Part shown: positions 21,235-56,806 of the stretch, piece by piece
Layout: each line of letters begins with the position of its first letter
How positions within the stretch are numbered: position 1 is the first letter of the stretch
Virus record (IMG/VR): IMGVR_UViG_3300033996_000257
Span: 1-57,775 of that record
DNA: 57,775 bases
Strand: one strand, 5' to 3'
DNA from: a virus
Taxonomy: Duplodnaviria; Caudoviricetes
The notes under the pieces: model-generated
The model's input: the letters and a program-made list of their open reading frames with translations, nothing else
Told to the model about the DNA's origin: nothing
Database searches by the model: none
Position numbers and translations under genes: made by a program

Positions 21235-21421
21235 ACCGGGCACAGGGTTTTTTGTTCCCGGGCTGGATGTTGCAAAGATAAAGGAACTGGGGCTACGCGC
21301 CTCAGTTCCTTACAAGTACCGCACTCAAGCTTTCATTGGTATCAGAAAGGGGTTGATAGGCGTATGGTTTTATCGGAAGCCTCTCTCACCGTACGAGCTA
21401 CGGCGGTCTTTATCTTCCTAA
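21203..21421 (+). CDS. Small hypothetical protein, possibly DNA-binding
   Basis: YPW..LKPG.GFFVP...GVWFYR. Confidence 0.65.
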   Translation: MEIIYPWATLKPGTGFFVPGLDVAKIKELGLRASVPYKYRTQAFIGIRKGLIGVWFYRKPLSPYELRRSLSS

Positions 21422-24400
21422 TCTTGTCAAGTTGTTCGCGCTTAGCTTCTGGTGACATGTTTGATGCGGCAATTGCTCGTTCAGCTTGAGTCAACATGCT
21501 CATATCATTCTTAAAGCTTTGCGCCATTTCAGCCTGCATAAACTCGTTACCGCGTCTTTGCAACAGCGCCTTGGCTTCTGACATCCGCCCCTCTGCCACC
21601 ATTTTGTCGAACGTTTGTTTGACTTTGATATTTTCGTTCATGCGCTCGTACACGCTGTTGATGATGCCGCCAGCATCGTTGGGTTGGAATGCGCCACCAA
21701 GAATTGGGTACTCCGACAAACGTTTAACAGCTTTCTCAGGACTCTCACCCGTAGGCACACCCACACTCAGTGCGTGCATAAACGCAAGCCCCATAGTGCC
21801 GGTGTAACCACTGACCAACTGTTCAAACACAATAGGGGATATGCCAAGCGTCTTGCCAATGCCTTTGGCCAACTCTGATGTGTTGGCGCGGAACTGTTCT
21901 TCTGGCAACAACTCCTTTTCCCGCGCAGACAAGATGTCTCGACCTGTGTAAAACGACTTGCCCAACCCCGCCTCGATGGCCGGTTTCATTATCTGGGGTA
22001 TGCCATAAGACGAACCGCCGGGCACTGTCTGAAGCAAAATTTGTTTGAACGCTTTGACTGCTTCTTCGCTGCCGTGTTCGTTGAGCATGCTGTTAAGCAG
22101 TGCCTCAGGCAACGCCTTGAAAATGTATCCAATTTCAAAAGGCACAGGCAATTTGATTGGTTCATCCAAACCCGGCACACGAATAAACCAATTTCCGTAT
22201 TTCTGGTCAGGGTTAGCATTCTTGTATGCTTCATCGTCTTGCATTAAAGCGGCGTAGGCAAAGCTGGCCACAGCCATCAAAGCACCGCGTTGCATCATCT
22301 TTTCACGTATACGCAACTGCTCGTTGAACGGCATCTTGCCCGTAGCCGCTTTGTACAACACGTTCAGACCTTGAATCTGAGCGTTAAAGAACGGTATCAT
22401 CGAATTGGCTATGTGTATTGATGGTGACGCGCCGCGCTTGTTAAAGTTCATGGACTCCAGCGCCAGCAAAGTTGCCTCCATCTCAGACAGACCTTGCTGA
22501 ATGTAGCTGTTGTACTGGGCGCGACGTGTTGTGGCATCCGCTTCCATACTCATGGCTTCAAGTTTGCCAAGCGCGGTCATCCAGCCCGGCTTACCCTCAG
22601 ACACGTCACGCAGAATTTTGGTCAAGTCCTCAGCGCCACCCACAAACTGCTGGCCTCCGGTAACACCACGGCGCTCAAGAGTCTTTTTGGTAGCGGAGTT
22701 GATTTCTTTCAACGCACCAATGACCGGCATAAAGTCTGCGCCAGAAAGAATAGGCGCGGCCAAGGAATCACGGAACAACTGCTTTGCTGTGTACAAAGGG
22801 CTGAGGGTAATAGCTTTGCGTAATACCTGTGCTGGGAAAGCCATGACGCGCAACATTGCTGGCATCTGTGTTGGAATGCCCTCCATGCCTTTGACAAGTA
22901 TGTCAGCAGGTACGCCAGTATCAAACTCCTTGTTACCAATCTTGACCTTCTCGGTAGCAATCACAGCGTAACGATCTGCGCCATCATCGCGGAATTTAAC
23001 AACGTCAGGGCCAGCAGCCATCTTTACAAACTTAGCAGCCTTCAAGTCCACCAGTTCAAACACAGCGTTCTTGGTAGCCAAGTTACGCATACCCATGTCC
23101 ATTAACAAGTTGGTGTTCTGCACCGAGCTAGTCAAGAAATCAAGGATGGGCCTGTCGCCACCAACAAGTTCATGCAAGTATGGTTGCTCAGCAATACTAC
23201 CAATACGGATGGGGGACTCACCACCAATTAACAGTTCGGCTACGCCGTTGCGTTCACGATAAAACGGGATGTAATCGTTTTCTCTAAGCAAACGTTTACC
23301 AACTTCTTTGGACAGTGCGCCAGTACTGACAACAAAATCAATCAAGTTGCGGTTGTAAGCGTTGTACTCGTCTTTTGCACTTTTGAACACAGCCTCTAAA
23401 CCGGGCGTGGCCTCGATGGCGGCCATAGTTTTATCCAGCAGTTCCTGTGTAACATCCTCACCAAAATTTAGAGAGGACAAACCTTTGTTCTTTGCGCGAA
23501 TAGCAGCCATGTACGTAGTGAACATAGTGTTTACAGCTTCTGCATTGCCAACCATTGGTTGTGCGTCTCTTAGAATCTGCACCACGTTGTTAATGTTGGC
23601 GCTCTCTTTACTCTCCAACACACGCTCAACGCGTCCGTCTGGGCGCGTCTTCTCTACGATTGCCGGTGCGCCGTTGGAGACTGCCTGAGATACAAAGTTC
23701 ATGCGTTGGTCGTACATGCGCAAGTAGTACAGCATCTGGGTGCCTTTAAGCGGCTCCATGTATTTGGCCAAACGCTCGAAGCCTGCAAACCTGTCCACAA
23801 GCTGTGTCTCAAAAGCCAGACCTGTTAAGTTGGCTTTAAGTTTGTCCGTCCAGCTTCTGTCCTTGGCCACGATCTTGTCAACAAAATCGCTGTTCTTGGC
23901 GATTTCTGGATTGGTGTACGTGGCTTTGGTGCGATACAAAATGCCAGACTTGTCTACTTCACCTTCAGCGGCTTGCGTTCCCTCAATCACATACTTGCGT
24001 GCATTGGCAACAATCTGCTTGACCTCGTTGTCAGTCACATTCTCAATACCAAACGTATTGGCCAGCCACTGCTTAATGGCGTTATAGATTTGACGCAGTG
24101 CGCTCTCGTTTGCCGGAGTTGCACCAGTCTCTGCCATCTCTGCCAGCACTTCCTCAACGGCAGTGTTTCTGTCCAGATTGGGCTCAGCCTGCATCTTGGC
24201 GTCGGTTTGTTTACGCACAGCGCTGTTGCCTTCATACACACGGTTCATGGTGCTGGCGTATGTGCCGCCCAGAACTTCCCGCAGACCAAAGTGACCTGCA
24301 ACTTCGTGTGCCAAAGTCATAGCAACATCGTTGCCATTGCCCAAGTTAGAAGCGACCAAGTACACAATCTTGGTGTTGGGGTCGTACAGGCCGGGAATCT

Positions 24401-27400
24401 GACCAGTCTTTTCGTCGCGCTTGGCTTGATCTTGGATTTCCTGTGGCAGACCAGACTCGTTGTCAACAACTTGAATCTCAGGAACATTTGCCCAGTCCTG
24501 CACTATGCGGTTGGTGAGCCGCGTAACTTCCTCGGCCTTCATGCCGTTGCCAACATTCTTGGCAGTGCGGAATAAGCCACGCAGATCAGGAGCTTCATAG
24601 CCCTCGCCGTAAGTACCTTCCTCACGCTCAGCACGCAGGGCATCCGACGCTTGCTCCAAAGTCCTTCTCTGCGGGGCCTTCAATTTGAGGCGTTCTGTAT
24701 CAGCAGCTTTACCAGCGCCCGACCCAGTACGGAAGGGCTTAGCCGCTGCCAACGCAGTGGTGCTCGGCACAGTAGCGGCCTTGGGTGCTTTGGCTGGTTT
24801 GCCTGTAATGAACGCTTGTTTCTGTGCTTCCAGTGAAGCCAGCTTCTGCATAGCGCCCAGTTTGAGCGTTGCTTGCGCACGTTTAGTATTGGTTGCGTTA
24901 GGGTCGGCCATGATGTCGGCCAACTGATTCATGTCTTCTGGCCCTATTAACGCCTGCACTTCACCACGGGCGTCAAAGATCTCGTCATCAAACAGTTGCA
25001 GCTGTTTGTCTTTGACCCTTTGACGTACGGCGGCTTCATCAACCTCTTTTGCCGCCTGCATACCTTTATCGCGCAACTCATCAAGGCGTCTTTGTTCAGG
25101 CGTATTGATCTCCGCAACTTTGCGGCCTTTCTCAAACACTGCGCCGGGTAGGTCTTTGACGCTGAGGCCATCCTTCTTGAACGCCGCAGTAACTTTAGGC
25201 CACCAGACCTTCACATCTTTTTGGAATTCGTCAGCACGTTTTTGTGCTTCGTCAACTACCGCTTGCTGTGCCTTTACTTGCGACGCTATGCGTTGCGCAG
25301 AAAGTGGATACTTGAGTTTGCCCAGTTCGCCCGGTCTGCCGGTCTCAACAGCAGTCAATGGCTCCTTGCGCATGTCGGCCAGTTGACGTTCAAGAATTTC
25401 TAAGTACTCACGCTCTGTCTTGAGGTCTTTGTCAAGCATGGCTTCTGTGACAACAACGTCGTTCTCAATTTCACCAAAACGCAGTTCTTGCAGCTCAGTC
25501 AGTTCTGTTTCAGCGCTTTCAATGTTCTCAACAAGCCCTTGAACTTTCTGCAAGTTGTTAATCAGGTTTGGCGCTTGGCCAGTACCCTCAGTCATCTCTT
25601 TTTTAGCCGCTTCAATTTGTGACTCAACTGTGGCCAGACGTGTCTTGGCAGCTTTTAAAGAACGACGTGCGCGTTCAATCTCAGGATCAAGCAATTCACC
25701 CAACGTATCAGACAAGCGTTGACGGGCTTTGCCCATTGCCGTGGCCATAGCCTTTTGATACGCGTTACGTTGGTTCTGAAGCGCAACTTCTGAGTCAATC
25801 ATTGCGCGTTGACCTTCAGTCAACATAACGGAGGTACGCAAACTTGCTTTGATAAGTTTGAGCTTATCCATCAACGGCTCAGTAACTTTGTTGAGCGCGT
25901 CAGCTTGTTTACGTACAGCCGCATTGTTGTCTTGCATCAGTTCAACTAAACGGTTGTTTGCACCTTCAAGACGTTGGCCCAATGCAAGGGTTTGCAAAGC
26001 TTGCTGAACGTTTTTAGCGTACTCAGGAATTTTGTTTGTGTTGAAGTCTTTGATTAACTTGTCTACCCGCGTTTTTTCTTCCTCAGTAAACACGGACATG
26101 GCTTGTTCTTTTTGTTCTTTTGTTTTGCCAATGTTTTGTTTAGATACTTGCAAGTACCGATCCATCAGCCTCTTGTCTTCTTTGGTAACGCCTGATTCTG
26201 GATAAGACGCAAACATTTTTGCAATGTCTGCGTCCGAGTATTTACCAATGTTGAAGTCTCCCGGCTTAATCAGGAAAAACTGCATTTGGTTTTTAACGCT
26301 TTCAATATTTTCTTTTAGCGCTTCAATCTGTTCAAAGCCTTGTTTGTCTCTAGCAGAACGTGCTTTCTGGTTGGCTTCTGTTTTTGCTTTGAGCTTGCGT
26401 GCCTGATCCAGTGCTTCCCACACAGGTTTGATCTGTGGTGATTTGGCAAAGTTGGCAGGGGTGGCGCGGATATAACCGATGTCTTTGCGAGTCTCGGGAA
26501 ACAACTGACCTTGACCCGGCGCACCTTCACCAGCAATCTCACCTTCTTGGGCTGTACGTTCATACAGCTTTATGGCATCTTGAAGCTCACGCAGTGCGCT
26601 ACCCTCAGGGGCAAGCGCGGCCTCGTAACCCACTGCTTTATATGTGCGGCCACGTTCTCCAAAGCGTGTCTCAGCTTCTCTGCCGGGCACATTCTCAACA
26701 ACACGTTTGCCGGGCACAGCTTCACGGCGGGCATACACCTGAGTGCCAAGGTCTTCGCCGCGCAGGATGCGCTCGGCTTGATTCTGGGCTGCGTCCAACA
26801 ACGCTTTGCTTGCTTTGCCGTCGTCAATGATTGTCTTGACGCGCTCCAGCGCCTCTCTAATGCCTTGAGTGCGGATAGGGCCGTCTTCAGTTTCTAAGAC
26901 TGCGCCTTCTGGGATGTTCCGTGTCAGCGCTTTGTCAATCATGTTGCCCACGTACTCACGCAGGCGGCGCATCTCCCCGCCAGCCGTCTTGGCTGTCTCA
27001 CCTCTGGCTTCTGCAACTTTCTGCGCTTCTGTGGAAGCAAACTGCTGTTTAAGCAGAGGTGTCTCGCGGGTAGCGGTGAACGGCAACTGAGACAGGCTAT
27101 CAACAACGCTGGCAATCTGAGCTTTGAAGTGCTTAATTTCTTTATTGCTGGCGGGCATTTCTTTGATTTGCTCTGCCATAGGGCGGGTATCAACAAATTC
27201 CCAAACAAACGGAAGCGTACCTTTGTCCAGCAACTCTTTTATTTGTTTTCTGATAACCGCATTAGTCCTAACGTCTAGTGCAGCAGCGGCAGAATCCACA
27301 TTTGTCACCGGTTTAATTTGTGCTTCTAAAGCAGCAAACACTTTTGTAGGTTTTTTAACCCACTCACCTGTGCTGGGTGCACCCGCAGGAACTTTAGACG

Positions 27401-29792
27401 GCGGTGTCTCACTGTATCTACGTTCAGTGATTGCGCCTCGGATAGTCTTGCCTGCGCGTTTCTGCGCAGGTTGCACAATTACTTCTTCGTATTTGGGTTT
27501 TTCCGTAAATTTCTGTACGGGCTTTACTTTTGAACGATCAATCCATTCACCCACCACATCATGAATGCGCGACGCAGCTTTGATTGCTTCGTCATATGTC
27601 AGTGAGGGTTTACCCGCAACACGGCGGTGGATAGCGGCTTCTTCCAACACAGCGGAAATGTATTTACCACGGGCATCTTCAGCTTGTTTGGCCAACACAT
27701 CAGGGGTAGCAGCAGCCACACCTTTGCCGGGTTCTGCCTTTTCTTTACCCAGAGCATCACCACGACGCAGACGGTCAATCTTGTCTTCAATTGCGTTCAA
27801 AGCTGTGTTCTGCTCATTGCGAACACGTAGTACTTCTTTGGCGTAGATGCTGGCTTGTGGGCTTACCTTGGCGCTGGGGAAGCGGCCTTTTGTCAGCTCT
27901 CCTGCTGGGGCTTCCGCAGCAAAAGCGTTAATTTGTTCAAGCGCTTGGTTCTCTCTTTCAAACGCAGCAGTGGCGGCATCTTGATTGTTTGAACGCTGCG
28001 CAACATCTCTATCCGTATTTGCCTGATCTATTTCATCAAGCAACTCGTTAATCTTGGTGCGCACCCGTTCAGCTTGTTTGGGCTGCATAAACGGCATCAA
28101 CTGAGGATTCACCGCTACTACTGGGGGTTTACCCTCAGCAATCTTTTCCAGCTTTGGCTGAATTATGTAATCAAAGAACGAGTCATCCCCAACGTTGTTA
28201 CGTCGGTCTTTAAGCTCGTCCATGTAGGAAGTAAACGCCTGTACATAGGGCGATTCTGTTTCTATAGGTTTGGCGGCACCGAAAGCTGCTTTGCGTGTCT
28301 CCATCTCCTGCTTAAAGCCCGGAGCAATTTGTAACTTCAGTGCATCCAACACCGCAGAGTTACGCACACCGGCAGGCAAACCGGGCAACTGCATGCGCTT
28401 ATTTACAATCTGATCCGCCAACACTGGGTTACGCATCAAGTATTTAACGTAGTCGGCCACCGCATCGTTGGGAGATTTTTCACCAGCAAGCTGTTGTTCG
28501 TTGGCCAACTGAATACTCTGCGCAGCGTGTTGCGCTACAACATCTTCTACCTTCGGTGCCGCAGGCGGCGTGGCAATCTGCTGCTCATAAAACTCAGGCT
28601 CAGCCTGCGCTTGTGGCGCGGCTTGCTCCGGCTCCATGCCCAACGCATACTCGTATGGGGTCAACTTAGCAACCCTTGCTTCTTCCGCAGCACGTTTCAG
28701 AATAGGCTTGACACGCACATACTCGTCAGCCAGCGGTTTAAGTTCTTTGTTTATGGCATCAATCTGGCGATTGACTTCCCGGTTGTTTGCGTAGTCTGTT
28801 TCTGGTGATACGCCTTTCTTTATTGGTATCAACTGCTGTTTGAGCGCAGTGCGCTGAGCTTCCAAGTCCTGCGTCTTTTGAAACACTTCTTGTGCGTACT
28901 CGGGACTGTTCAGCCGAACCTTTTCTTCTTCCTGCTGTTTCTCTGCTTCAGCGCGGGCTTGTTTTACTTCGTCAGTGATTGGTGTTGTTGGGGCACGGCG
29001 ACCAATAGCCAAGTCCAAAAGACCTTGCGCCAACGCACCGACTGCACCGCCGTAAGCGGCGGATTCTCCAACCTGCTCAATAATTTCTTGTTCAGGCTTG
29101 TATATACCTTTGCTAATAATGTTCTGTGCGGCTTGCGATGCGGCTTCTTGCGCGGCTTCCTCACCGCCTGCCATCAACGCACGTTTTACGTAAGACGTAG
29201 CGCCATCAAGTACCGGCTCTCCAAGACGTTTCAGAATACGTGTGGGGGCAAACATCTCTGTCGCACCAACAGCGGCACCCAACAAAGTGGAGGCGGTTTG
29301 TTGTCCTTCAGTTGCCCCCTCAGCGGCAGACTTCTCTACCTGTGTGCCAGCACCAGCGCCAATACCAAGGCCGTAGCCTGCAACACGCCCAGCCATACCA
29401 AACGGGCCGGTGGCAACAAACGGCAAAAAAGAACCCGTAGCTTCACCAAACTTACGCCCCACCGTGTCCTCGTACCCCGGCGCAGCAGCAAATGGAGCTT
29501 TGGCTGCGGCGGCTTTTTCTTTGATGTACTGTTGTGCGGCTTTTTCTTGCTCATTGGGCAACAGCGCGGAAATACCAATACCGGCTTGCTCAGTGAGGCC
29601 AATGGCTCCGGGCACAAGCCCTTTAAAGAACTCTTTTGTCTGCCCGCCAAACGTAGTTTCTTGTGTTTTTTGTGCAGGCTGCGTAGCTATTTGCCGTTTT
29701 ACAGCAGCAACAATATCTTGTTCAGAAGCGCCAGCAGGCCCCTCCACATCGTAGATCCGTCCGTCCGGGCCTTGTACGCTGTAAATTGGCAT
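21342..29792 (-). CDS. 2816-aa polyvalent internal virion/ejection protein (metallopeptidase-like plus LPD38-like C-terminus)
   Basis: N-terminal Gly/Ala hydrophobic helices; long coiled coil; GLYDP...LAHEVAGHFGLR...EEVLAE; NFNKRG..IPFFNA.IQG, LPVPFEIG. Confidence 0.8.
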   Translation of the reverse strand: MPIYSVQGPDGRIYDVEGPAGASEQDIVAAVKRQIATQPAQKTQETTFGGQTKEFFKGLVPGAIGLTEQAGIGISALLPNEQEKAAQQYIKEKAAAAKAPFAAAPGYEDTVGRKFGEATGSFLPFVATGPFGMAGRVAGYGLGIGAGAGTQVEKSAAEGATEGQQTASTLLGAAVGATEMFAPTRILKRLGEPVLDGATSYVKRALMAGGEEAAQEAASQAAQNIISKGIYKPEQEIIEQVGESAAYGGAVGALAQGLLDLAIGRRAPTTPITDEVKQARAEAEKQQEEEKVRLNSPEYAQEVFQKTQDLEAQRTALKQQLIPIKKGVSPETDYANNREVNRQIDAINKELKPLADEYVRVKPILKRAAEEARVAKLTPYEYALGMEPEQAAPQAQAEPEFYEQQIATPPAAPKVEDVVAQHAAQSIQLANEQQLAGEKSPNDAVADYVKYLMRNPVLADQIVNKRMQLPGLPAGVRNSAVLDALKLQIAPGFKQEMETRKAAFGAAKPIETESPYVQAFTSYMDELKDRRNNVGDDSFFDYIIQPKLEKIAEGKPPVVAVNPQLMPFMQPKQAERVRTKINELLDEIDQANTDRDVAQRSNNQDAATAAFERENQALEQINAFAAEAPAGELTKGRFPSAKVSPQASIYAKEVLRVRNEQNTALNAIEDKIDRLRRGDALGKEKAEPGKGVAAATPDVLAKQAEDARGKYISAVLEEAAIHRRVAGKPSLTYDEAIKAASRIHDVVGEWIDRSKVKPVQKFTEKPKYEEVIVQPAQKRAGKTIRGAITERRYSETPPSKVPAGAPSTGEWVKKPTKVFAALEAQIKPVTNVDSAAAALDVRTNAVIRKQIKELLDKGTLPFVWEFVDTRPMAEQIKEMPASNKEIKHFKAQIASVVDSLSQLPFTATRETPLLKQQFASTEAQKVAEARGETAKTAGGEMRRLREYVGNMIDKALTRNIPEGAVLETEDGPIRTQGIREALERVKTIIDDGKASKALLDAAQNQAERILRGEDLGTQVYARREAVPGKRVVENVPGREAETRFGERGRTYKAVGYEAALAPEGSALRELQDAIKLYERTAQEGEIAGEGAPGQGQLFPETRKDIGYIRATPANFAKSPQIKPVWEALDQARKLKAKTEANQKARSARDKQGFEQIEALKENIESVKNQMQFFLIKPGDFNIGKYSDADIAKMFASYPESGVTKEDKRLMDRYLQVSKQNIGKTKEQKEQAMSVFTEEEKTRVDKLIKDFNTNKIPEYAKNVQQALQTLALGQRLEGANNRLVELMQDNNAAVRKQADALNKVTEPLMDKLKLIKASLRTSVMLTEGQRAMIDSEVALQNQRNAYQKAMATAMGKARQRLSDTLGELLDPEIERARRSLKAAKTRLATVESQIEAAKKEMTEGTGQAPNLINNLQKVQGLVENIESAETELTELQELRFGEIENDVVVTEAMLDKDLKTEREYLEILERQLADMRKEPLTAVETGRPGELGKLKYPLSAQRIASQVKAQQAVVDEAQKRADEFQKDVKVWWPKVTAAFKKDGLSVKDLPGAVFEKGRKVAEINTPEQRRLDELRDKGMQAAKEVDEAAVRQRVKDKQLQLFDDEIFDARGEVQALIGPEDMNQLADIMADPNATNTKRAQATLKLGAMQKLASLEAQKQAFITGKPAKAPKAATVPSTTALAAAKPFRTGSGAGKAADTERLKLKAPQRRTLEQASDALRAEREEGTYGEGYEAPDLRGLFRTAKNVGNGMKAEEVTRLTNRIVQDWANVPEIQVVDNESGLPQEIQDQAKRDEKTGQIPGLYDPNTKIVYLVASNLGNGNDVAMTLAHEVAGHFGLREVLGGTYASTMNRVYEGNSAVRKQTDAKMQAEPNLDRNTAVEEVLAEMAETGATPANESALRQIYNAIKQWLANTFGIENVTDNEVKQIVANARKYVIEGTQAAEGEVDKSGILYRTKATYTNPEIAKNSDFVDKIVAKDRSWTDKLKANLTGLAFETQLVDRFAGFERLAKYMEPLKGTQMLYYLRMYDQRMNFVSQAVSNGAPAIVEKTRPDGRVERVLESKESANINNVVQILRDAQPMVGNAEAVNTMFTTYMAAIRAKNKGLSSLNFGEDVTQELLDKTMAAIEATPGLEAVFKSAKDEYNAYNRNLIDFVVSTGALSKEVGKRLLRENDYIPFYRERNGVAELLIGGESPIRIGSIAEQPYLHELVGGDRPILDFLTSSVQNTNLLMDMGMRNLATKNAVFELVDLKAAKFVKMAAGPDVVKFRDDGADRYAVIATEKVKIGNKEFDTGVPADILVKGMEGIPTQMPAMLRVMAFPAQVLRKAITLSPLYTAKQLFRDSLAAPILSGADFMPVIGALKEINSATKKTLERRGVTGGQQFVGGAEDLTKILRDVSEGKPGWMTALGKLEAMSMEADATTRRAQYNSYIQQGLSEMEATLLALESMNFNKRGASPSIHIANSMIPFFNAQIQGLNVLYKAATGKMPFNEQLRIREKMMQRGALMAVASFAYAALMQDDEAYKNANPDQKYGNWFIRVPGLDEPIKLPVPFEIGYIFKALPEALLNSMLNEHGSEEAVKAFKQILLQTVPGGSSYGIPQIMKPAIEAGLGKSFYTGRDILSAREKELLPEEQFRANTSELAKGIGKTLGISPIVFEQLVSGYTGTMGLAFMHALSVGVPTGESPEKAVKRLSEYPILGGAFQPNDAGGIINSVYERMNENIKVKQTFDKMVAEGRMSEAKALLQRRGNEFMQAEMAQSFKNDMSMLTQAERAIAASNMSPEAKREQLDKIRKIKTAVARTVREASDKTIRLSTPF

Positions 29793-49043: not shown

Positions 49044-50120
49044 TTACCGTCTATTTTGTTTTTTCGCCGCCAGCTTTTGAATGGCGCGGGCCACAGCCGG
49101 AGGAGTCTTGGGGGGCACAACAGAAGGCTTGGCCGCTGCTTTTGCCATTGGTGGTGCAACTGGTTTTGGTGCCACAGGGGCGGGTCGTGACACCGAAGGT
49201 TTTGCCATTGGTGTAGGACGTGCAGTTGGTACAGTCGTCATTGGAGGGGTGGGCTTGCCACCTAAAAGTGCTGCCAAACTTTCCAAGCCTGCTTGGGGAG
49301 CTTGTCCTAAACCCACTTGACCTTGCTGCATAGCTTGTTGCTGAGCCGCCTGTTGCATAGCTTGTTGCTGAGCCGCCTGTTGGGCCATCTGACCCATTTG
49401 TTGCCCATAAGGCTGTGCAAAACCGGGCATACCACCCTGTGTTTGACCGCCCTGTCCTCCGGGCATGCCAATCTCGGGTTGCGGAATGTTGGCCATATTA
49501 CCCAACTGGCCAAATCGGTTACCCAACTGGCCTAGTTGGTTGTTGTTGCCAGAGCCGCCGGGTTGCGGCATGGGATTTTGAGGTATCTGACCGTAAAGCT
49601 GATTTGGATCGGCAAGACCTTTGTATTTTCTGTAGGCAGCATCTTGTGCTCTGCCAACCGACCCGGAACCCATCTGTCCAAAGTACGGGGAGTTATACAT
49701 ATCTTGAGTGGCCATCATGTTTCGCGGGTCGTTTTGATATTCCTTGAACTCGGGCGATTGGAAAAACGCATCATCTGTGCCCACCATTTGGGCTGGGCCA
49801 CCTACTTGAGGTTGTCCACCGTATGAATCAATACCGGGCATATTAGGTGACGGTAGAGGTGTAAGTTGTCCACCCATATTGCCACCAAACCCACCGCCCA
49901 TGTTGGGTTGGTTTTGCATTGATCTCAAGTCGCCAAATGAGTGTTGACCCATGTTGCCACCAAACCCACCGCCCATGCTACCCATCGGGTTTTGAGGTTG
50001 TCCGCCCATGCCGCCCAAAGCTCCGCCAACGGCGTTGCCAATTTGCCCCATAGGGTTGGGAGGGGTTACCGCAGGGCTTTGTGCCCCGACGCCTCCAGTT
50101 GTTCCGCCGCCGCCTGCCAT
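49044..50120 (-). CDS. Low-complexity G/Q/P/M-rich protein
   Basis: 358 aa; GGAG SD; internal repeats; basic C-terminus. Confidence 0.7.
   Translation of the reverse strand: MAGGGGTTGGVGAQSPAVTPPNPMGQIGNAVGGALGGMGGQPQNPMGSMGGGFGGNMGQHSFGDLRSMQNQPNMGGGFGGNMGGQLTPLPSPNMPGIDSYGGQPQVGGPAQMVGTDDAFFQSPEFKEYQNDPRNMMATQDMYNSPYFGQMGSGSVGRAQDAAYRKYKGLADPNQLYGQIPQNPMPQPGGSGNNNQLGQLGNRFGQLGNMANIPQPEIGMPGGQGGQTQGGMPGFAQPYGQQMGQMAQQAAQQQAMQQAAQQQAMQQGQVGLGQAPQAGLESLAALLGGKPTPPMTTVPTARPTPMAKPSVSRPAPVAPKPVAPPMAKAAAKPSVVPPKTPPAVARAIQKLAAKKQNRR
49327..49380. repeat. 27-bp tandem duplication
   Basis: GCATAGCTTGTTGCTGAGCCGCCTGTT twice, encoding QQAAQQQAM twice. Confidence 0.85.
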
Positions 50121-50129
50121 AATGTTCTC

Positions 50130-50363
50130 CTATCTAAATTTTGCCGTTTTCTTGGCAATCACTTTGGGTTGTGCTACAAACTGCCTACCCGCCTTTTTAC
50201 CAGATCGCTTGGCCTTGGTTGTCGCAGCGTATTCGGCTGGCGACAAGGACTTGATAGCGGCTTCTGGCAGGTAACGCTCGCCCGTTTTAGATGAAGGCTT
50301 CCCTGACTTGGTGCGCCATTTCTGGTCGCCCCAGTTTTTAAGAGAAGCCTGCGGCGCTTTCAC
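50130..50363 (-). CDS. DUF5872-like protein, C-terminal half
   Basis: Q.SLK.W..QKWRTKSGKPS...ERYLP..A. Confidence 0.7.
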   Translation of the reverse strand: MKAPQASLKNWGDQKWRTKSGKPSSKTGERYLPEAAIKSLSPAEYAATTKAKRSGKKAGRQFVAQPKVIAKKTAKFR

Positions 50364-50686
50364 TTCATCATACCCCGCGTCTTACCGCGTTGCGCTATTC
50401 CGTCTGCACGAAATGAAGCTGACTTGACCGTGCCGCCTTTTTTCATGCCACGAGTTTCGCGTTGCAATTCGGAAGCATACTCTTTAGCTTTAGCGTCAGG
50501 CAGTGTAAGCCCCGGCCCAATAGTACGGCCTTTGCCGTTCTTTGTTCGGTAAATATAACTTTTCCCAGTTGGGACGCCAAAATCGTCGCTAGTTTGTCCT
50601 TGACTATCAGTCCCGCCAAGCGTTTCAGGCTCTGTAGTAAACCTAGCTGTACCGGTCTTTTTCTTTTCAGTCACGATATCCTCCAC
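50360..50686 (-). CDS. Small basic protein with GG and GKTRG tail
   Basis: MKKGGTVKSASFRADGIAQRGKTRGMMK. Confidence 0.7.
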   Translation of the reverse strand: MEDIVTEKKKTGTARFTTEPETLGGTDSQGQTSDDFGVPTGKSYIYRTKNGKGRTIGPGLTLPDAKAKEYASELQRETRGMKKGGTVKSASFRADGIAQRGKTRGMMK

Positions 50687-50942
50687 CTGCTGCCTTGTAC
50701 TTCTTGGCTACCAACTGAGCCTTACGGGCTGACCACTGGCCTGCACCGGTGCCGTGTGTTGCCGCTGCTTTCACTTGGCTGACTATACGTTTCCTGAGTT
50801 CCGGCTTGGTGTAGTTCCCCGCCGCGTTGACTTTCCCACCCTCTTTGTATTGGGTGAAATCGGTGTCATCGCGGCGCGGAGTCTTCACGCCTTTGGGCAT
50901 CTTTGAGGGGTTGATGTCCCCCATACCACGGCTGGACATCAT
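50667..50942 (-). CDS. Small basic protein containing the DUF5872-like N-terminal half
   Basis: YKEGGKV; YTKPELRKRI...GQWSARKAQLVAKKYKAAGGGY. Confidence 0.7.
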   Translation of the reverse strand: MMSSRGMGDINPSKMPKGVKTPRRDDTDFTQYKEGGKVNAAGNYTKPELRKRIVSQVKAAATHGTGAGQWSARKAQLVAKKYKAAGGGYRD

Positions 50943-50943
50943 G

Positions 50944-51306
50944 TCAGCAGTAGGCTTTGCCGCCAGACTTCATGGTGACCATCTTGCCTTTGGTTTTGCC
51001 TTTTACAGCAATACCATCTTTGCTTGGGGCAGCCGTTTTAACTTTGCCCATTGATGTCATGCCACCAGAAGCCATTTTCTTCATTGGCATTTCTTTCTTG
51101 CCTTTTGCCATGTCTTTTTTCTTGGCAATCATTTCCATGAAAGGGTTTGCTTTAGCCATATCACCACCTCTTTTAAAAGTTTTGCCTTTGTCGGCGTTTG
51201 AAAAATCCTTGCCCACAGACTGTGGGACTCCCACCTTCTTGGCAAACGATGGGTTGTTGGCCACCGCTTCCATGAAATTGTGCTGCTTCTTACTCGTGCT
51301 TGGCAT
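50944..51306 (-). CDS. Small K/M-rich basic protein
   Basis: MPSTSKKQHNFMEAVA; three xxxGG motifs; KDGIAVKGKTKG. Confidence 0.75.
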   Translation of the reverse strand: MPSTSKKQHNFMEAVANNPSFAKKVGVPQSVGKDFSNADKGKTFKRGGDMAKANPFMEMIAKKKDMAKGKKEMPMKKMASGGMTSMGKVKTAAPSKDGIAVKGKTKGKMVTMKSGGKAYC

Positions 51307-51478
51307 ACTTAGCCACCAAGTTTTTAACAGTTTCAGTTTCCCAGATGCGGATAGTCATCCACACAATGGTCAATACTCCACCAATGAGTGCTACAACAGG
51401 GGTCATCCAGCCCATGAAACCGCCAAGTCCAACAACCACAGCAGCGCCATCAGTCATTGTTTTTATGTCGTTGTTCAT
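51290..51478 (-). CDS. Small membrane protein, holin-like
   Basis: 62 aa, largely hydrophobic; IVW..IRIWE. Confidence 0.6.
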   Translation of the reverse strand: MNNDIKTMTDGAAVVVGLGGFMGWMTPVVALIGGVLTIVWMTIRIWETETVKNLVAKYAKHE

Positions 51479-51801
51479 ACCATCCGTCCTTTGGTTTTGC
51501 CTTTGACGGCACAGCCGTCAGCACGTTTGGAGGCACTAGAGACTTTTCCACCTTTGGCGTAGTCATCGCTCGTGCGCGGGGATCTGTCACTAGAATCAGA
51601 ACTTCTACCTCTGGGGGAGCCAAAACTCATTTCACCAGAAAACTCTGATTCTCGGTCAGCTTTTTCTTTGTAGTCTTTTGAAGAGCGGCTACCGGTAGGA
51701 CGAGGATTTAATGTCGAAGACGGGATGCTACGAAAGCCTCCGCCCCCACCGCCACCTTCAAGCATCTGGTCATCAGTAGGTTTTTTACCAATTTTTTTCA
51801 T
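51475..51801 (-). CDS. Small basic disordered protein with GG and GKTKG tail
   Basis: YAKGGKVSSASKRADGCAVKGKTKGRMV; GAGGT SD. Confidence 0.7.
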   Translation of the reverse strand: MKKIGKKPTDDQMLEGGGGGGGFRSIPSSTLNPRPTGSRSSKDYKEKADRESEFSGEMSFGSPRGRSSDSSDRSPRTSDDYAKGGKVSSASKRADGCAVKGKTKGRMV

Positions 51802-51808
51802 GTTTACC

Positions 51809-52063
51809 TCAACACTTCCAAGCCCGCAGGCTCTTGTTAATCCTCGAATTTGGATCCTTGGCGGTTTTTTCGCTCGTTAATTTCTTCTTCATCCCTTCCA
51901 TACGGGCGCAGAAGGAGTCGCGGCGTTTGCCGCCCTCTGGTTGAGGAGCTTTCAGCCCGGGCTTCCCGGGGTTCGCCTTGTTGTAGGAAGCCCGACCTTT
52001 GGCGTTCAAGCCTCCGCTCTCGGACTTCCCTTCCTTGCGCGTCCATGCTGGGGATTTAGCCAT
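51809..52063 (-). CDS. Conserved small basic phage protein (DUF6321-like)
   Basis: GGLNAKGR, RR.SFCARM, SRINKSLR.W.C. Confidence 0.75.
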   Translation of the reverse strand: MAKSPAWTRKEGKSESGGLNAKGRASYNKANPGKPGLKAPQPEGGKRRDSFCARMEGMKKKLTSEKTAKDPNSRINKSLRAWKC

Positions 52064-52337: not shown

Positions 52338-52491
52338 TTTGTTGCTCCGGTTCTGGCGCTTCTAGCCTGTTTATGAGCATCTGGTACGCCTCAATTGTGC
52401 CCTGAGCTTTGAGGAGGAAGGCTTCCGCCCTCCCTGCCTCTTTTCTCAAATCAGCAATTTCTGCTTCCAGAAATTCCTTGGTAATCTGCAT
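52321..52491 (-). CDS. 56-aa coiled-coil protein
   Basis: MQITKEFLEAEI..., TAATG-coupled to the upstream gene. Confidence 0.65.
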   Translation of the reverse strand: MQITKEFLEAEIADLRKEAGRAEAFLLKAQGTIEAYQMLINRLEAPEPEQQNDDAI

Positions 52492-53069
52492 TATGAGTTG
52501 GTCGTAGTCAACATGATGTAGTACGCAGTACCTGCGCTGTCCACAATCTTCAACGAGTTTGTAGCTGCGCCTTGGGTGTTGGCCGTGACCATGCCTGATG
52601 GCACATTGAACAAGTTTGCAACAGTGCCTGTACCGCTGTTTGTAAAGCGGATGAACGAAGCATTTGTCCAAGTACCGCCAGAAGCAAAGTCAGAATCAGC
52701 TTGGATAGCTGCAATTGTGCCGCCGGGGTTTGTGGATGTACCACCCAAAGTAGCGCGAAGAGCGTTACCCGCACCAGAAATAGTGCCGGAACCGTTGATG
52801 CTCAAGCTAACGTGTGCACCGTTGACAGTACCGCCAGTAGCTGCATCAGCGCCTGTGACTCGTGTCAATGCGCGAATGGTTTCGCCAGAACCGGTGGAAG
52901 TAAATTCCAAGCGGTTGTACGACAGGCGTGTATCGCCAGTGGTAGCTGAAGTGGTGGCGTATGACTCGGAGATATTGCCCGCAGTAGTCTCAACGACGGG
53001 GCTGGAAGCTGTTCCGGAGATAAAGCCATTTTGTGATATGACTGGGCCGGAGAACGTGGTATTTGCCAT
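52491..53069 (-). CDS. Head-associated fibre or decoration protein
   Basis: MANTTFSGPV..NGF N-terminus, T/G/S-rich, directly after the capsid gene. Confidence 0.7.
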   Translation of the reverse strand: MANTTFSGPVISQNGFISGTASSPVVETTAGNISESYATTSATTGDTRLSYNRLEFTSTGSGETIRALTRVTGADAATGGTVNGAHVSLSINGSGTISGAGNALRATLGGTSTNPGGTIAAIQADSDFASGGTWTNASFIRFTNSGTGTVANLFNVPSGMVTANTQGAATNSLKIVDSAGTAYYIMLTTTNS

Positions 53070-53074
53070 GATTT

Positions 53075-53152
53075 TTTCCTTACATGCAAGTGGGGCGTAT
53101 CTGTCTGCATGTCGTCAGCCGGGACTGTCAGATACACCGGAAAACCCCGGAA
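53075..53152 (-). ncRNA. Candidate double-pseudoknot leader RNA
   Basis: Three interleaved helices ending next to the AAGGA SD. Confidence 0.55.
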
Positions 53153-53169
53153 TGGTTTGAATATACAGC

Positions 53170-53197
53170 AAAAGAAAAGGGGGCGCTAGCCCCCTTC
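53170..53197 (-). terminator. Rho-independent terminator after the major capsid gene
   Basis: AAGGGGGC-TAGC-GCCCCCTT then TTCTTTT on the minus strand. Confidence 0.85.
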
Positions 53198-53208
53198 CCT
53201 CAAGTCGC

Positions 53209-54138
53209 TTACGCGCCTGCTGAACCCCACATACCGAGAGGATCAGACCAGCCGAAGCTGTAACGCTCACGAGCTTTGTAACGGACGTTGCCGGTATCAA
53301 AGTCGCCGTCCATCGAGTTAGCCAAAGGCATACGCTCGAAATGCTTCATGCCGTTTGGAACGTCGGTAATCAAATACCAGCCGTTTGTATCGGTCAAGAA
53401 GTTGTTGACGGTATAGCCTTCTGGCACTACGCCCATTTGCTTCAACGCGTTGATGTCGTTGTCAGCAGTAGAGACGCGCAGTTCAGTGTCAAGCAAACGC
53501 TTGGCAACGAACATCAGTGAAGGAGGAATAACCATCTTGCGAGGCTTGGCGGCAATCAACAGACCACGCTCATCAGTCCATGCTGCGATTTGAATCACGG
53601 CATTTTCCAAAGAGGTTTCGTTCAAGTCCACACCAACGGAGGGGCTGTTGAAGTTCACACCACCGTTAACCAGTGGGTGGCCAACACGAGTGCTGGAGCT
53701 GTTGTTACCGAACAATGTGACACCGTCACCGCCCAAGTAAGAACCGTTAAAACCGTTGTTGATGACGGAAGCGGACTTAACTTGTTTGGTGAAGGCCATT
53801 GCACGGGCCAAGGCTTTGGTGTAGCGAGCAGACAAGCTGTCGTACAAGTTATCTTCAACCGCTTCTTCAGTGATTGAGAAACCCAAAGCAATGGTTTCGT
53901 GGTTGTAGCGGGCGGTGAATGCTTCTTGCGCATTGTCGTAAGCGATGGCAGAGCCTTCGTTCTTGACAGGTGCTGCACCGAAGCCAGCCAACTTGGTTTC
54001 TTCTTCAAAGCTACGCTCAGATTTCTCTGTTTCGTAGATCTCTTTGTGCTGTTCGCCGTAACGTGCATATTCCATGCCGAACAAAGCGTTCAGGCCGGGG
54101 AGCAGTTCTTTGAGTAGTTGTGCGCGTGAAATAGCCAT
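53209..54138 (-). CDS. Major capsid protein
   Basis: MAISRAQLLKELLPGLNALFG, K.EG.AI.YD, DFDTGNVRYKARERYSFGWSD; strong SD and downstream terminator. Confidence 0.9.
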   Translation of the reverse strand: MAISRAQLLKELLPGLNALFGMEYARYGEQHKEIYETEKSERSFEEETKLAGFGAAPVKNEGSAIAYDNAQEAFTARYNHETIALGFSITEEAVEDNLYDSLSARYTKALARAMAFTKQVKSASVINNGFNGSYLGGDGVTLFGNNSSSTRVGHPLVNGGVNFNSPSVGVDLNETSLENAVIQIAAWTDERGLLIAAKPRKMVIPPSLMFVAKRLLDTELRVSTADNDINALKQMGVVPEGYTVNNFLTDTNGWYLITDVPNGMKHFERMPLANSMDGDFDTGNVRYKARERYSFGWSDPLGMWGSAGA

Positions 54139-56181: not shown

Positions 56182-56619
56182 TTATGCGCGGGTCAAGCCG
56201 CGAGGGTCTTGCACAACAGCGTCAATCTGATCGTCGTTAATCAGTCGAAACTCTTTTCCGAAAATCTTGAAGCGCGTACCGGAATATGTACGCACGAGCA
56301 CGAAGTCGCCTTCCTTGCACCACGGGCCACCGGGGAACTTGGTCTGGTCTTTGTACGCGTCTGGGCCAACCTTCAACACAAACAAAACGGTTGTGGCGCT
56401 TTCTTCTTGTCGCATGGTTGTGGCATCTCGAACCAAATCGAGACTTGTGCCAGCGATCTTTTCATCGACCTCTGGTACAGCACACAACAACTTCCAACCC
56501 GTAGGGGCTGGCAGCATCGTGGCTTTGGTTACATCGTCTGCATCTTGCTCGGGAGCGTCGATGGGTTGGATGGCTTCAGGCAGGGCGAACTGCCCCGGTT
56601 CTAGAACGAGTTCACTCAT
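56182..56619 (-). CDS. groES: GroES-like co-chaperonin
   Basis: P.GWKLL, VLKVGPDAY, WCKEGDFV, YSGT, RLINDD.I.AVV. Confidence 0.88.
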   Translation of the reverse strand: MSELVLEPGQFALPEAIQPIDAPEQDADDVTKATMLPAPTGWKLLCAVPEVDEKIAGTSLDLVRDATTMRQEESATTVLFVLKVGPDAYKDQTKFPGGPWCKEGDFVLVRTYSGTRFKIFGKEFRLINDDQIDAVVQDPRGLTRA

Positions 56620-56806
56620 TTGCTTTTTCCACTTTCTCAGCAAGGTCGATTAGATAGCGCTCTGCGGTGGCCAGACCCTGAATGACTCCGCAAAGTTTTT
56701 GGTACTCGTCAAAGTTGCGACACATCCCACCAGCCAAGTCATCGGCGTAGTTGTTCATGTCGGTGCGTATTTGTTCGCGCAATACGCGTGCGAATTCTGA
56801 AATCAT
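56612..56806 (-). CDS. Conserved small protein between portal and GroES
   Basis: L..G...FDEY..LCG.I.GL. Confidence 0.75.
   Translation of the reverse strand: MISEFARVLREQIRTDMNNYADDLAGGMCRNFDEYQKLCGVIQGLATAERYLIDLAEKVEKANE

Follow-up and report, generated by a model that had tools for sequence, protein, structure and literature searches.

The locus downstream of the major capsid protein gene

The window, i.e., the whole 57,775-nucleotide stretch that was analysed, is an IMG/VR virus record with an estimated completeness of 90%. Its plus-strand genes extend up to about 21 kb, and the minus strand carries a structural block between the right end of the window and 21,342. On this strand, the region 5' of the capsid gene encodes a GroES-like protein, a 316-aa protein of coiled-coil appearance and two small proteins. 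The GroES-like co-chaperonin gene, ahead of the head genes, lies at 56182-56643 on the minus strand (PHROG 3188, E 3.1e-8), and the same head-gene order, including the GroES-like gene, is also annotated in Planktothrix phage Pag-Yong1, phage 023Pt_psg01 and phage DSL-LC04. The genes and signals around the 3' end of the capsid gene are:

53209 to 54138, minus strand: major capsid protein gene encoding 309 aa, matched by PHROG 371 (major head protein, E 1.2e-18) and by Pfam Phage_capsid_4 with 44.5 bits, the cut-off being 27
53202 to 53169, minus strand: intrinsic terminator identified by terminator scan and folding, in which GGGGGC (53194-53189) pairs with GCCCCC (53184-53179) around the loop UAGC, followed by a U tract
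53069 to 53067, minus strand: start codon ATG of the first post-capsid gene
52491 to 53069, minus strand: first post-capsid gene, 192 aa, with the N-terminus M-A-x-T-T-F-x-G-P-V followed by a variable, T/S/G/A-rich sequence

The capsid terminator is the sole convincing one on the minus strand of the structural module; the terminator scans returned 30 and 31 sites, versus 25.6 and 26.3 expected, i.e., a number at chance level.

The 192-aa protein belongs to no Pfam or PHROG family, and neither a PDB sequence match nor a tblastn match in 50,697 phage records was obtained. It has 3,884 relatives, the best 120 of which are all unnamed or annotated as "hypothetical protein". Its Atlas matches are unnamed viral clusters, and a Phage_cement_2 cluster at 0.78 is a lead only. 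An AlphaFold2 model, based on a 30-row alignment, has a pLDDT of 41.9. Complete copies of the downstream protein in related loci range from 62 to 233 aa and have in common the N-terminal M-A-x-T-T-F-x-G-P-V-x-S alone, after which they diverge. The syntenic gene was named "cement protein" by the depositors of DSL-LC04, and "minor capsid protein" by those of Pag-Yong1.

Further along the minus strand, a series of small, very basic open reading frames lies 3' of the post-capsid genes (50130-52063), several of them with a terminal repeated motif resembling S.RADG.A.KGKTKG. A 358-aa reading frame (49044-50120, minus strand) is of extremely low complexity, with G, Q, M, P and N repeats and an A/P/K-rich tail, and the structural block ends in a single reading frame of 2,816 aa (21342-29792, minus strand).

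Two interlocked pseudoknots fill the 5' untranslated region

Between the capsid terminator and the first post-capsid gene, the minus strand encodes a compact leader, with the following elements in 5' to 3' order:

53150 to 53145, minus strand: PK1 5' strand CCGGGG, which pairs with UCCCGG (53124-53119)
53144 to 53139, minus strand: U-rich linker UUUUCC, whose two C (53140-53139) are nearly invariant (at least 90%)
53138 to 53129, minus strand: P2 5' strand GGUGUAUCUG, which forms 10 bp with CAGAUACGCC, including one U.G
53128, minus strand: invariant A before P4
53127 to 53125 and 53118 to 53116, minus strand: P4 hairpin, CAG with CUG, 3 bp
53115 to 53113, minus strand: junction ACG, with the A nearly invariant and the C invariant
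53112 to 53105, minus strand: PK2 5' strand ACAUGCAG, core six 53112-53107
53104, minus strand: invariant, unpaired A between the PK2 5' strand and the P2 3' strand
53103 to 53094, minus strand: P2 3' strand CAGAUACGCC, partner of GGUGUAUCUG
53093 to 53090, minus strand: linker CCAC, variable, and 4 to 14 nt long in relatives
53089 to 53082, minus strand: PK2 3' strand UUGCAUGU, core six 53087-53082, ending at the Shine-Dalgarno (SD) sequence
53081 to 53077, minus strand: SD sequence AAGGA, whose first base directly follows PK2

The strands thus occur in the order PK1a, P2a, P4a, PK1b, P4b, PK2a, P2b, PK2b. The P4 loop, of six bases (UCCCGG, 53124-53119), is exactly the 3' strand of PK1. The resulting fold consists of two interlocked H-type pseudoknots, one formed by P4 and PK1 and the other by P2 and PK2, each of which is threaded through a loop of the other. 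P2 encloses one hairpin and one single strand, and the fold therefore has no three-way junction. Extending from 53150 to 53082 on the minus strand, roughly 75 nt, it occupies the entire 5' untranslated region of the first post-capsid gene. No supported helix accounts for the two near-invariant C that precede P2.

An initial annotation of this DNA had proposed a double pseudoknot between the capsid terminator and the next structural gene. P2, PK1, PK2, AAGGA and an upstream TATATT box were all recovered at the coordinates that it had claimed, on the minus strand, as was the location of the element; the P4 hairpin is an addition to that description.

Covariation supports the double pseudoknot

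The 103-nt leader alone has a predicted folding energy of -21.1 kcal/mol (z +0.56), and 134 of 200 shuffled sequences are at least as stable; because the folding-energy program cannot count pseudoknots, the energy was used neither for nor against the fold. The structure was assessed instead by covariation among related loci, in several alignments. In the first of these, a MAFFT alignment of 59 sequences (A1), 89.6% of cells are paired, versus 28.7-42.0% when the partners are slid against each other, and double changes are seen in 18 of 31 pairs. The second alignment (A2; 66 distinct rows) was derived from a covariance model that holds P2 and P4 only. Here 93.3% of cells form standard pairs (24.3-40.1% when slid), compensatory changes occur in 21 of 27 pairs, and none of 500 shuffles reaches the observed value for any of five measures. 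Resolved by helix, double changes affect 10/10 pairs of P2, 5/6 of PK1, 2/3 of P4 and 4/6 of the PK2 core. Since PK1 and PK2 are absent from the model, their support in A2 does not stem from fitting.

P4 is paired in 100% of cells in A2, and the PK2 core in 98.9%. The outermost pairs of PK2 are weak in this alignment: 35 of 63 rows lack the A-U pair, and the G.U pair, although present in all of its 62 rows, is without any double change. Likewise, 25 of 64 rows lack the sixth pair of PK1. The position of the SD sequence is conserved as well.

A second set of loci, fetched by a DNA pattern, gives a similar picture, with 92.9% of cells paired (24.0-49.0% when slid), double changes in 13 of 25 pairs and compensatory changes in 9 of the 10 pairs of P2. 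PK1 reaches just 76% by fixed columns in this set, owing to a register shift of one column. In a register-free test, at least five contiguous PK1 pairs can be formed in 98 of 99 distinct combinations of strand and loop, compared with 25.7% when the loops are shuffled. That is, the types of P4 loop co-vary with the 5' strands of PK1. G.U pairs are frequent, e.g., in 56 of 62 rows at one PK2 pair. The structure thus holds on the mRNA-sense strand only, which points to an RNA. Taken together, these patterns of substitution make it almost certain that the double-pseudoknot leader is a real and conserved RNA structure, much as the initial annotation had envisaged.

It is extremely improbable, by the same data, that the arrangement is due to chance or is a signal at the DNA level without any function as RNA, e.g., the target of a homing endonuclease. 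Several families of free-standing endonuclease genes are indeed inserted right beside the leader. An endonuclease target, however, would conserve sequence rather than pairing, and neither a DNA signal nor chance accounts for compensatory changes in four helices, for G.U pairs confined to the sense strand, or for a signal that 0 of 500 shuffles reach.

Two further pairings were evaluated in the same manner. Pairing of UCC (53141-53139) with GGA of the SD sequence is possible in 74% of cells in A1, with any double change in one of four pairs. The competing hairpin CCGG-GGUUUU-CCGG, which the initial annotation had put forward as an alternative partner for the 5' strand of PK1, with the CCGG before P2, is pairable in 90.8% of cells. 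Its covariation does not exceed that of shuffled alignments (77 to 340 of 500 reach the observed values), and by eye the hairpin is absent from several divergent members (L048, L055, L071 and DSL-LC04). It is thus unsupported as a competing fold.

The leader accompanies a capsid lineage and matches no Rfam family

The capsid protein, used as a query, matched more than 600 IMG/VR stretches, and the best 80 loci were taken for comparison. The covariance model was then scanned over 81 sources in all (452,332 bases, both strands), and the fold was detected once per contig in 71 of these 81 capsid-chosen sources, namely the window and 70 further loci. Two of the 71 copies are incomplete: that in L010 carries a deletion, and that in L060 is cut by the end of the contig. 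In L069 the element appears when the filters are switched off. L040 and L053 yield no element even with the filters off. Two further inserted genes run to the end of the L040 locus, and L053 ends 1,455 nt after the capsid gene; the lack of the element there does not establish its absence.

The deletion in L010 (L010:3436-3525) is clean, beginning directly behind the -10 box and ending midway through the fold. It removes the 5' half of the fold and retains the promoter box, the 3' strands of P2 and PK2, the SD sequence and the gene. Either the fold is dispensable in this virus, as a viable natural deletion would indicate, or the contig is misassembled.

The second set comprises 122 loci that were fetched by the DNA pattern, with no use of the capsid. 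Its pattern demands a 7-nt P4 loop and thus samples a sister variant, not matching the 6-nt loop of the window; the count of at least 120 matching contigs holds for the 7-nt-loop variant only. One copy per contig was found in all 100 of the 122 loci that were scanned (851,328 bases). A capsid homologue (37-89% identical) lies upstream on the same strand in 112 of the 122 loci, and nine of the remaining ten have less than 700 nt of upstream sequence. Over both sets of loci, the capsids upstream of the fold are 37-99% identical. The fold is always on the strand given by the orientation of the capsid match. Where the capsids are just 37-40% identical, the RNA core is still identical to the letter; i.e., the leader RNA is better conserved than the adjacent capsid protein. 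A frameshift or readthrough signal for the capsid gene was also considered and rejected: the core of the fold lies 73 to 1,695 nt past the end of the capsid match (112 loci), with the terminator in between.

A search of 185,579 species genomes with the pattern gave only two matches (L202 and L203), in metagenome-assembled contigs labelled Nitrosomonadales and Armatimonadetes. Both also carry the capsid gene; they may be phage contigs that were binned with bacteria, or they may offer hints as to the host. A divergent copy of the leader is found in DSL-LC04, where all six PK2 pairs differ from those in the window and yet still pair. This phage is described as a metagenome-assembled lake phage assigned to no known family (PMC10611076). 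The post-capsid spacer of Pag-Yong1 (L204:3403-3510) is rich in G+C. By eye, it allows a stem with the SD sequence as its 3' strand, plus two pseudoknot-like complements, and the model of the window's type of leader (class A, see below) does not detect this spacer.

A search of window positions 52500-53800 against Rfam 15, with E values up to 10, gave three weak matches, none of them on the leader. The nearest was ctRNA_p42d on the terminator, with 21.9 bits against a gathering score of 50. For eight related loci (40,527 bases; E up to 1), three sub-threshold matches were obtained, in the region of the capsid 3' end and the terminator. The fold is present in hundreds of contigs from uncultured lake and marine phages and absent from Rfam 15, and the leader could serve as a sequence marker of this phage lineage.

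The fold is tied to the ribosome-binding site

In leaders of the window type, referred to as class A, the SD sequence begins where the 3' strand of PK2 ends. The SD sequence itself is part of no supported, i.e., covarying, helix in the window class; the fold could therefore present the SD sequence rather than hide it. Other members place this boundary differently. In L025, L055 and L071 the SD sequence itself (UGAGG or UUGAGG) serves as the 3' strand of PK2, and by eye this strand overlaps the SD sequence by 3 nt in a sub-group of five loci (L217, L271, L225, L272 and L274) as well as in L263.

A further 80 loci were fetched with the capsid of Pag-Yong1. The same downstream gene family is found in 65 of them, together with two more leader architectures. 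Class B (10 loci) keeps PK1, P2 and P4, and its SD sequence lies, by eye, in a small local hairpin for which four different stem sequences occur. Class C (32 loci) is shorter, and its P4 is a plain hairpin. In this class RNAalifold, unprompted, pairs CCUG with CAGG of the SD sequence CAGGAG, and compensatory changes are seen in 7 of 11 predicted pairs. The junction segment of class C pairs, in addition, with UGG and codon 2. At least five contiguous pairs can be formed here in 25 of 32 loci, versus 20% with shuffled junctions and 17% with swapped partners; GCC always occurs with the codon GCU, and CCC always with the codon GGU.

The class A model detects 7 of the 10 class B loci and does not detect class C. 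All three classes have motifs in common, namely GAC after the P2 5' strand, CUGAC after P4 and AGAC before the P2 3' strand. From these junction motifs, the shared position and the same downstream gene family, we infer homology of classes B and C with class A. The three related architectures would thus represent one leader family that moves the ribosome-binding site in and out of its fold. This repeated re-wiring around the SD sequence and the start codon is most simply explained by a translational control element. The original proposal of a cis-regulatory switch is hence strengthened as to cis-regulation, given that the SD sequence and start codon lie inside the fold in the related classes; its "switch" component is unsupported, as the competing hairpin has no covariation above that of shuffles.

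A compact pseudoknot next to the SD sequence is also what could be expected of a riboswitch, i.e., an aptamer for a small molecule or ion whose ligand would fix the fold and alter access to the ribosome-binding site. Pseudoknots near the SD sequence are known from several small riboswitches, and the leader has invariant unpaired positions that could be read in this way (A 53128, A/C 53115-53114 and G/A 53105-53104). Such positions are few, however, and the controlled gene is structural rather than one for metabolism or transport. No alternative fold that could act as an expression platform is supported, nor does any Rfam riboswitch match. We regard a riboswitch as quite doubtful.

Transcription of the leader

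The initial annotation had also noted a -10-like box just upstream of the leader. The elements relevant to transcription are:

53188 to 53183, minus strand: TAGCGC at the -35 position, 17 nt upstream of the -10 box; weak, and situated in the terminator loop
53165 to 53160, minus strand: -10 box TATATT, which fits the type TAnnnT
53153, minus strand: predicted transcription start, an A, the seventh base after the -10 box

Among 64 distinct relatives, 51 have TATATT as the -10 box. The other 13 have deviating hexamers, 11 of which are directly preceded by TGn, as in an extended -10 element; in at least five of these 11 cases, the TG also belongs to the stop codon of an inserted gene. Of 64 distinct contexts, 51 have a TTG upstream of the box at a spacing of 16 or 17 nt, whereas other offsets account for zero to two cases each, apart from six at offset 20. 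In the relatives this TTG is often the loop of the capsid terminator (TTGTGC), and where genes are inserted, the 3' end of the insert provides the -35 element, as TTGACA or TTGCAC. On this evidence, TATATT is the predicted -10 element of a sigma-70-type promoter in most relatives. In the window itself, the -35 hexamer is weak: there is no TTGnnn at 16-18 nt, and a promoter scan calls no promoter. The earlier reading of the box is thus borne out for the family and less so for the window.

The A at 53153 is invariant in at least 90% of sequences amid a variable discriminator, and transcripts of most members are predicted to have about 3 nt ahead of PK1. The -10 box is missing from six class A relatives whose capsids are distant; there the fold directly follows a strong hairpin. 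The fold is thus the conserved core, and the promoter is a frequent companion.

The region of the promoter has two further peculiarities. The terminator (53179-53194 in the window) and the next promoter overlap in most relatives, the hairpin loop doubling as the -35 element. Secondly, at least three kinds of free-standing gene resembling those of homing endonucleases share a single insertion site, which lies between the -10 box and the capsid terminator (L001, L004, L008, L012, L022, L038, L049 and L064; also L040). Two kinds are GIY-YIG-like, with the motifs IYKIIN..KFY.GSS and FYVY.YRDP..VYVGKG, and the third is Cys-rich, with YYFTG.PC..GHIA.RKTKG.CVEC. Their stop codons abut or overlap the -10 box. 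Because the inserts are always upstream of this box, they do not separate the leader from the downstream gene. The inserted endonucleases may have the conserved leader DNA as their target site.

Nineteen runs recorded as RNA contain parts of the stretch, and all are lake-water libraries. Among RNA-library contigs from four of the runs, one bridges the capsid 3' end and the leader (53105-53532), while contigs of three runs stop at 53129-53132, within the 5' strand of P2. Assembled contigs of this kind cannot reveal starts, ends or strand. Their stops are, in addition, uninformative as to initiation or cleavage, since they fall in the most variable part of the fold, where the assembly graph would branch anyway.

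These observations bear on whether the leader could be a self-cleaving ribozyme, then probably of a new class, or a processing site, as the initial annotation had also suggested, at which the downstream message would be cut away from the capsid message and its 3' hairpin. Phage genomes often contain small ribozymes, and in the six relatives with a strong hairpin and no -10 box the leader would lie inside a longer transcript. The contig stops in the P2 5' strand are a weak hint at most, given that contig ends cannot show RNA ends and that these fall at the most variable part of the fold. Most members, moreover, have a promoter of their own directly upstream, which would make cleavage needless. 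The order of the helices is unlike that in hammerhead, twister, pistol, hatchet and HDV-like ribozymes, and no Rfam model, including those for ribozymes, matches. Cleavage is thus very unlikely to be the function of this RNA.

A position so near the predicted 5' end might also suit an element that protects the mRNA, in which the knot would shield the post-capsid message from decay that depends on the 5' end, or would block a 5'-to-3' exonuclease. PK1 starts about 3 nt after the predicted +1, the order of the helices resembles that of exonuclease-resistant RNAs (xrRNAs), and the fold is kept in the promoter-less relatives, where it would be internal to a longer transcript and a block to exonucleases would still make sense. 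Protection would leave unexplained, however, why the 3' edge of the fold tracks the SD sequence, and why classes B and C bury both the SD sequence and the start codon. A simple 5' hairpin would do for this purpose; the leader has no three-way junction, and no Rfam family matches it. We consider protection an unlikely primary role.

Finally, the leader directly follows a promoter and heads a long block of genes on the same strand (53069 down to ~21342, i.e., about 32 kb of late genes), as would be expected of a cis-acting RNA for processive antitermination, similar to put of phage HK022. Such an RNA would have little to act on, as there are no convincing terminators downstream on that strand, where the counts are at chance level. 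Antitermination would not explain the coupling to the SD sequence and start codon either, and some members are promoter-less. This function is, in our judgment, highly improbable.

Proposed role of the leader

Considering the position of the fold, its covariation and the variant classes, we favor, on balance, a cis-acting leader that gates initiation of translation of the cement-like gene. The folded RNA would decide the ease with which the 30S subunit gains access to the ribosome-binding site, and the output of the cement-like protein would be uncoupled from that of the capsid gene, which is heavily expressed. The fold might also, secondarily, affect mRNA stability.

A more specific proposal, which we put forward tentatively and as the less probable of the two, is that the double pseudoknot represents a new class of riboregulator, locked or released by a factor acting in trans. 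Candidates for this factor would be a small ligand and phage proteins, namely free capsid and the cement-like protein itself. If so, synthesis of a capsid-decorating protein would be coupled to the state of head assembly in very abundant uncultured aquatic phages. With translational gating as the working model, the leader provides a testable entry to the way in which capsid and capsid-associated proteins are balanced in these phages. It is also a natural case of two interlocked pseudoknots within about 75 nt, of use to work on RNA structure.

Comparison with known systems

No description of a double-pseudoknot leader of this kind was found in the literature. A published survey predicted 8,495 unnamed structured-RNA candidates ("DNAVirus_X") from intergenic regions of IMG/VR (PMC10690425), i.e., from the same data source and with the same covariation-based approach to detection as used here. 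The available text of that paper mentions candidates upstream of the major capsid protein, not downstream, and describes no such fold; the leader motif, being abundant, may already be among its candidates. New are the family as such, its architecture of two interlocked pseudoknots and the existence of three variant forms.

In kind, the leader would appear to belong with the pseudoknotted leaders at ribosome-binding sites. The rpsO (S15) and alpha-operon (S4) leaders of E. coli, the latter with a nested double pseudoknot, are pseudoknotted translational operators that hold the ribosome-binding site. As in these, a 5'-leader pseudoknot, here a double one, has a 3' part that reaches or includes the SD sequence and the start codon, and classes B and C bury both. 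Unlike in these, the controlled gene is a phage structural gene, not a ribosomal protein operon, the SD sequence in the window class adjoins the fold instead of being inside it, and there is no relation in sequence.

The small pseudoknots of preQ1-II, SAM-II and similar riboswitches are SD-proximal as well, with a 3' strand that touches the SD sequence; in contrast to these, the leader has neither an Rfam match nor a metabolic gene context. Flaviviral xrRNAs, whose families are among the Rfam models, have a double pseudoknot in which a three-way junction with ring-forming pseudoknots stalls a 5'-3' exonuclease. They share with the leader a 5' tail that pairs into the interior, and an interior that pairs with the 3' tail. 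The leader differs from them in having no three-way junction and no Rfam match, in its bacterial host and in its tie to the SD sequence.

Among phage RNAs, the leader of T4 gene 32 contains a single H-type pseudoknot, far from the SD sequence, that nucleates the cooperative binding of gp32. This leader is cited in PMC10690425 as well. In both systems a pseudoknot lies near the 5' end of a phage mRNA leader, and that of T4 is tied to translational control and to message stability. Here, by contrast, two interlocked pseudoknots end at the SD sequence, before a capsid-associated gene.
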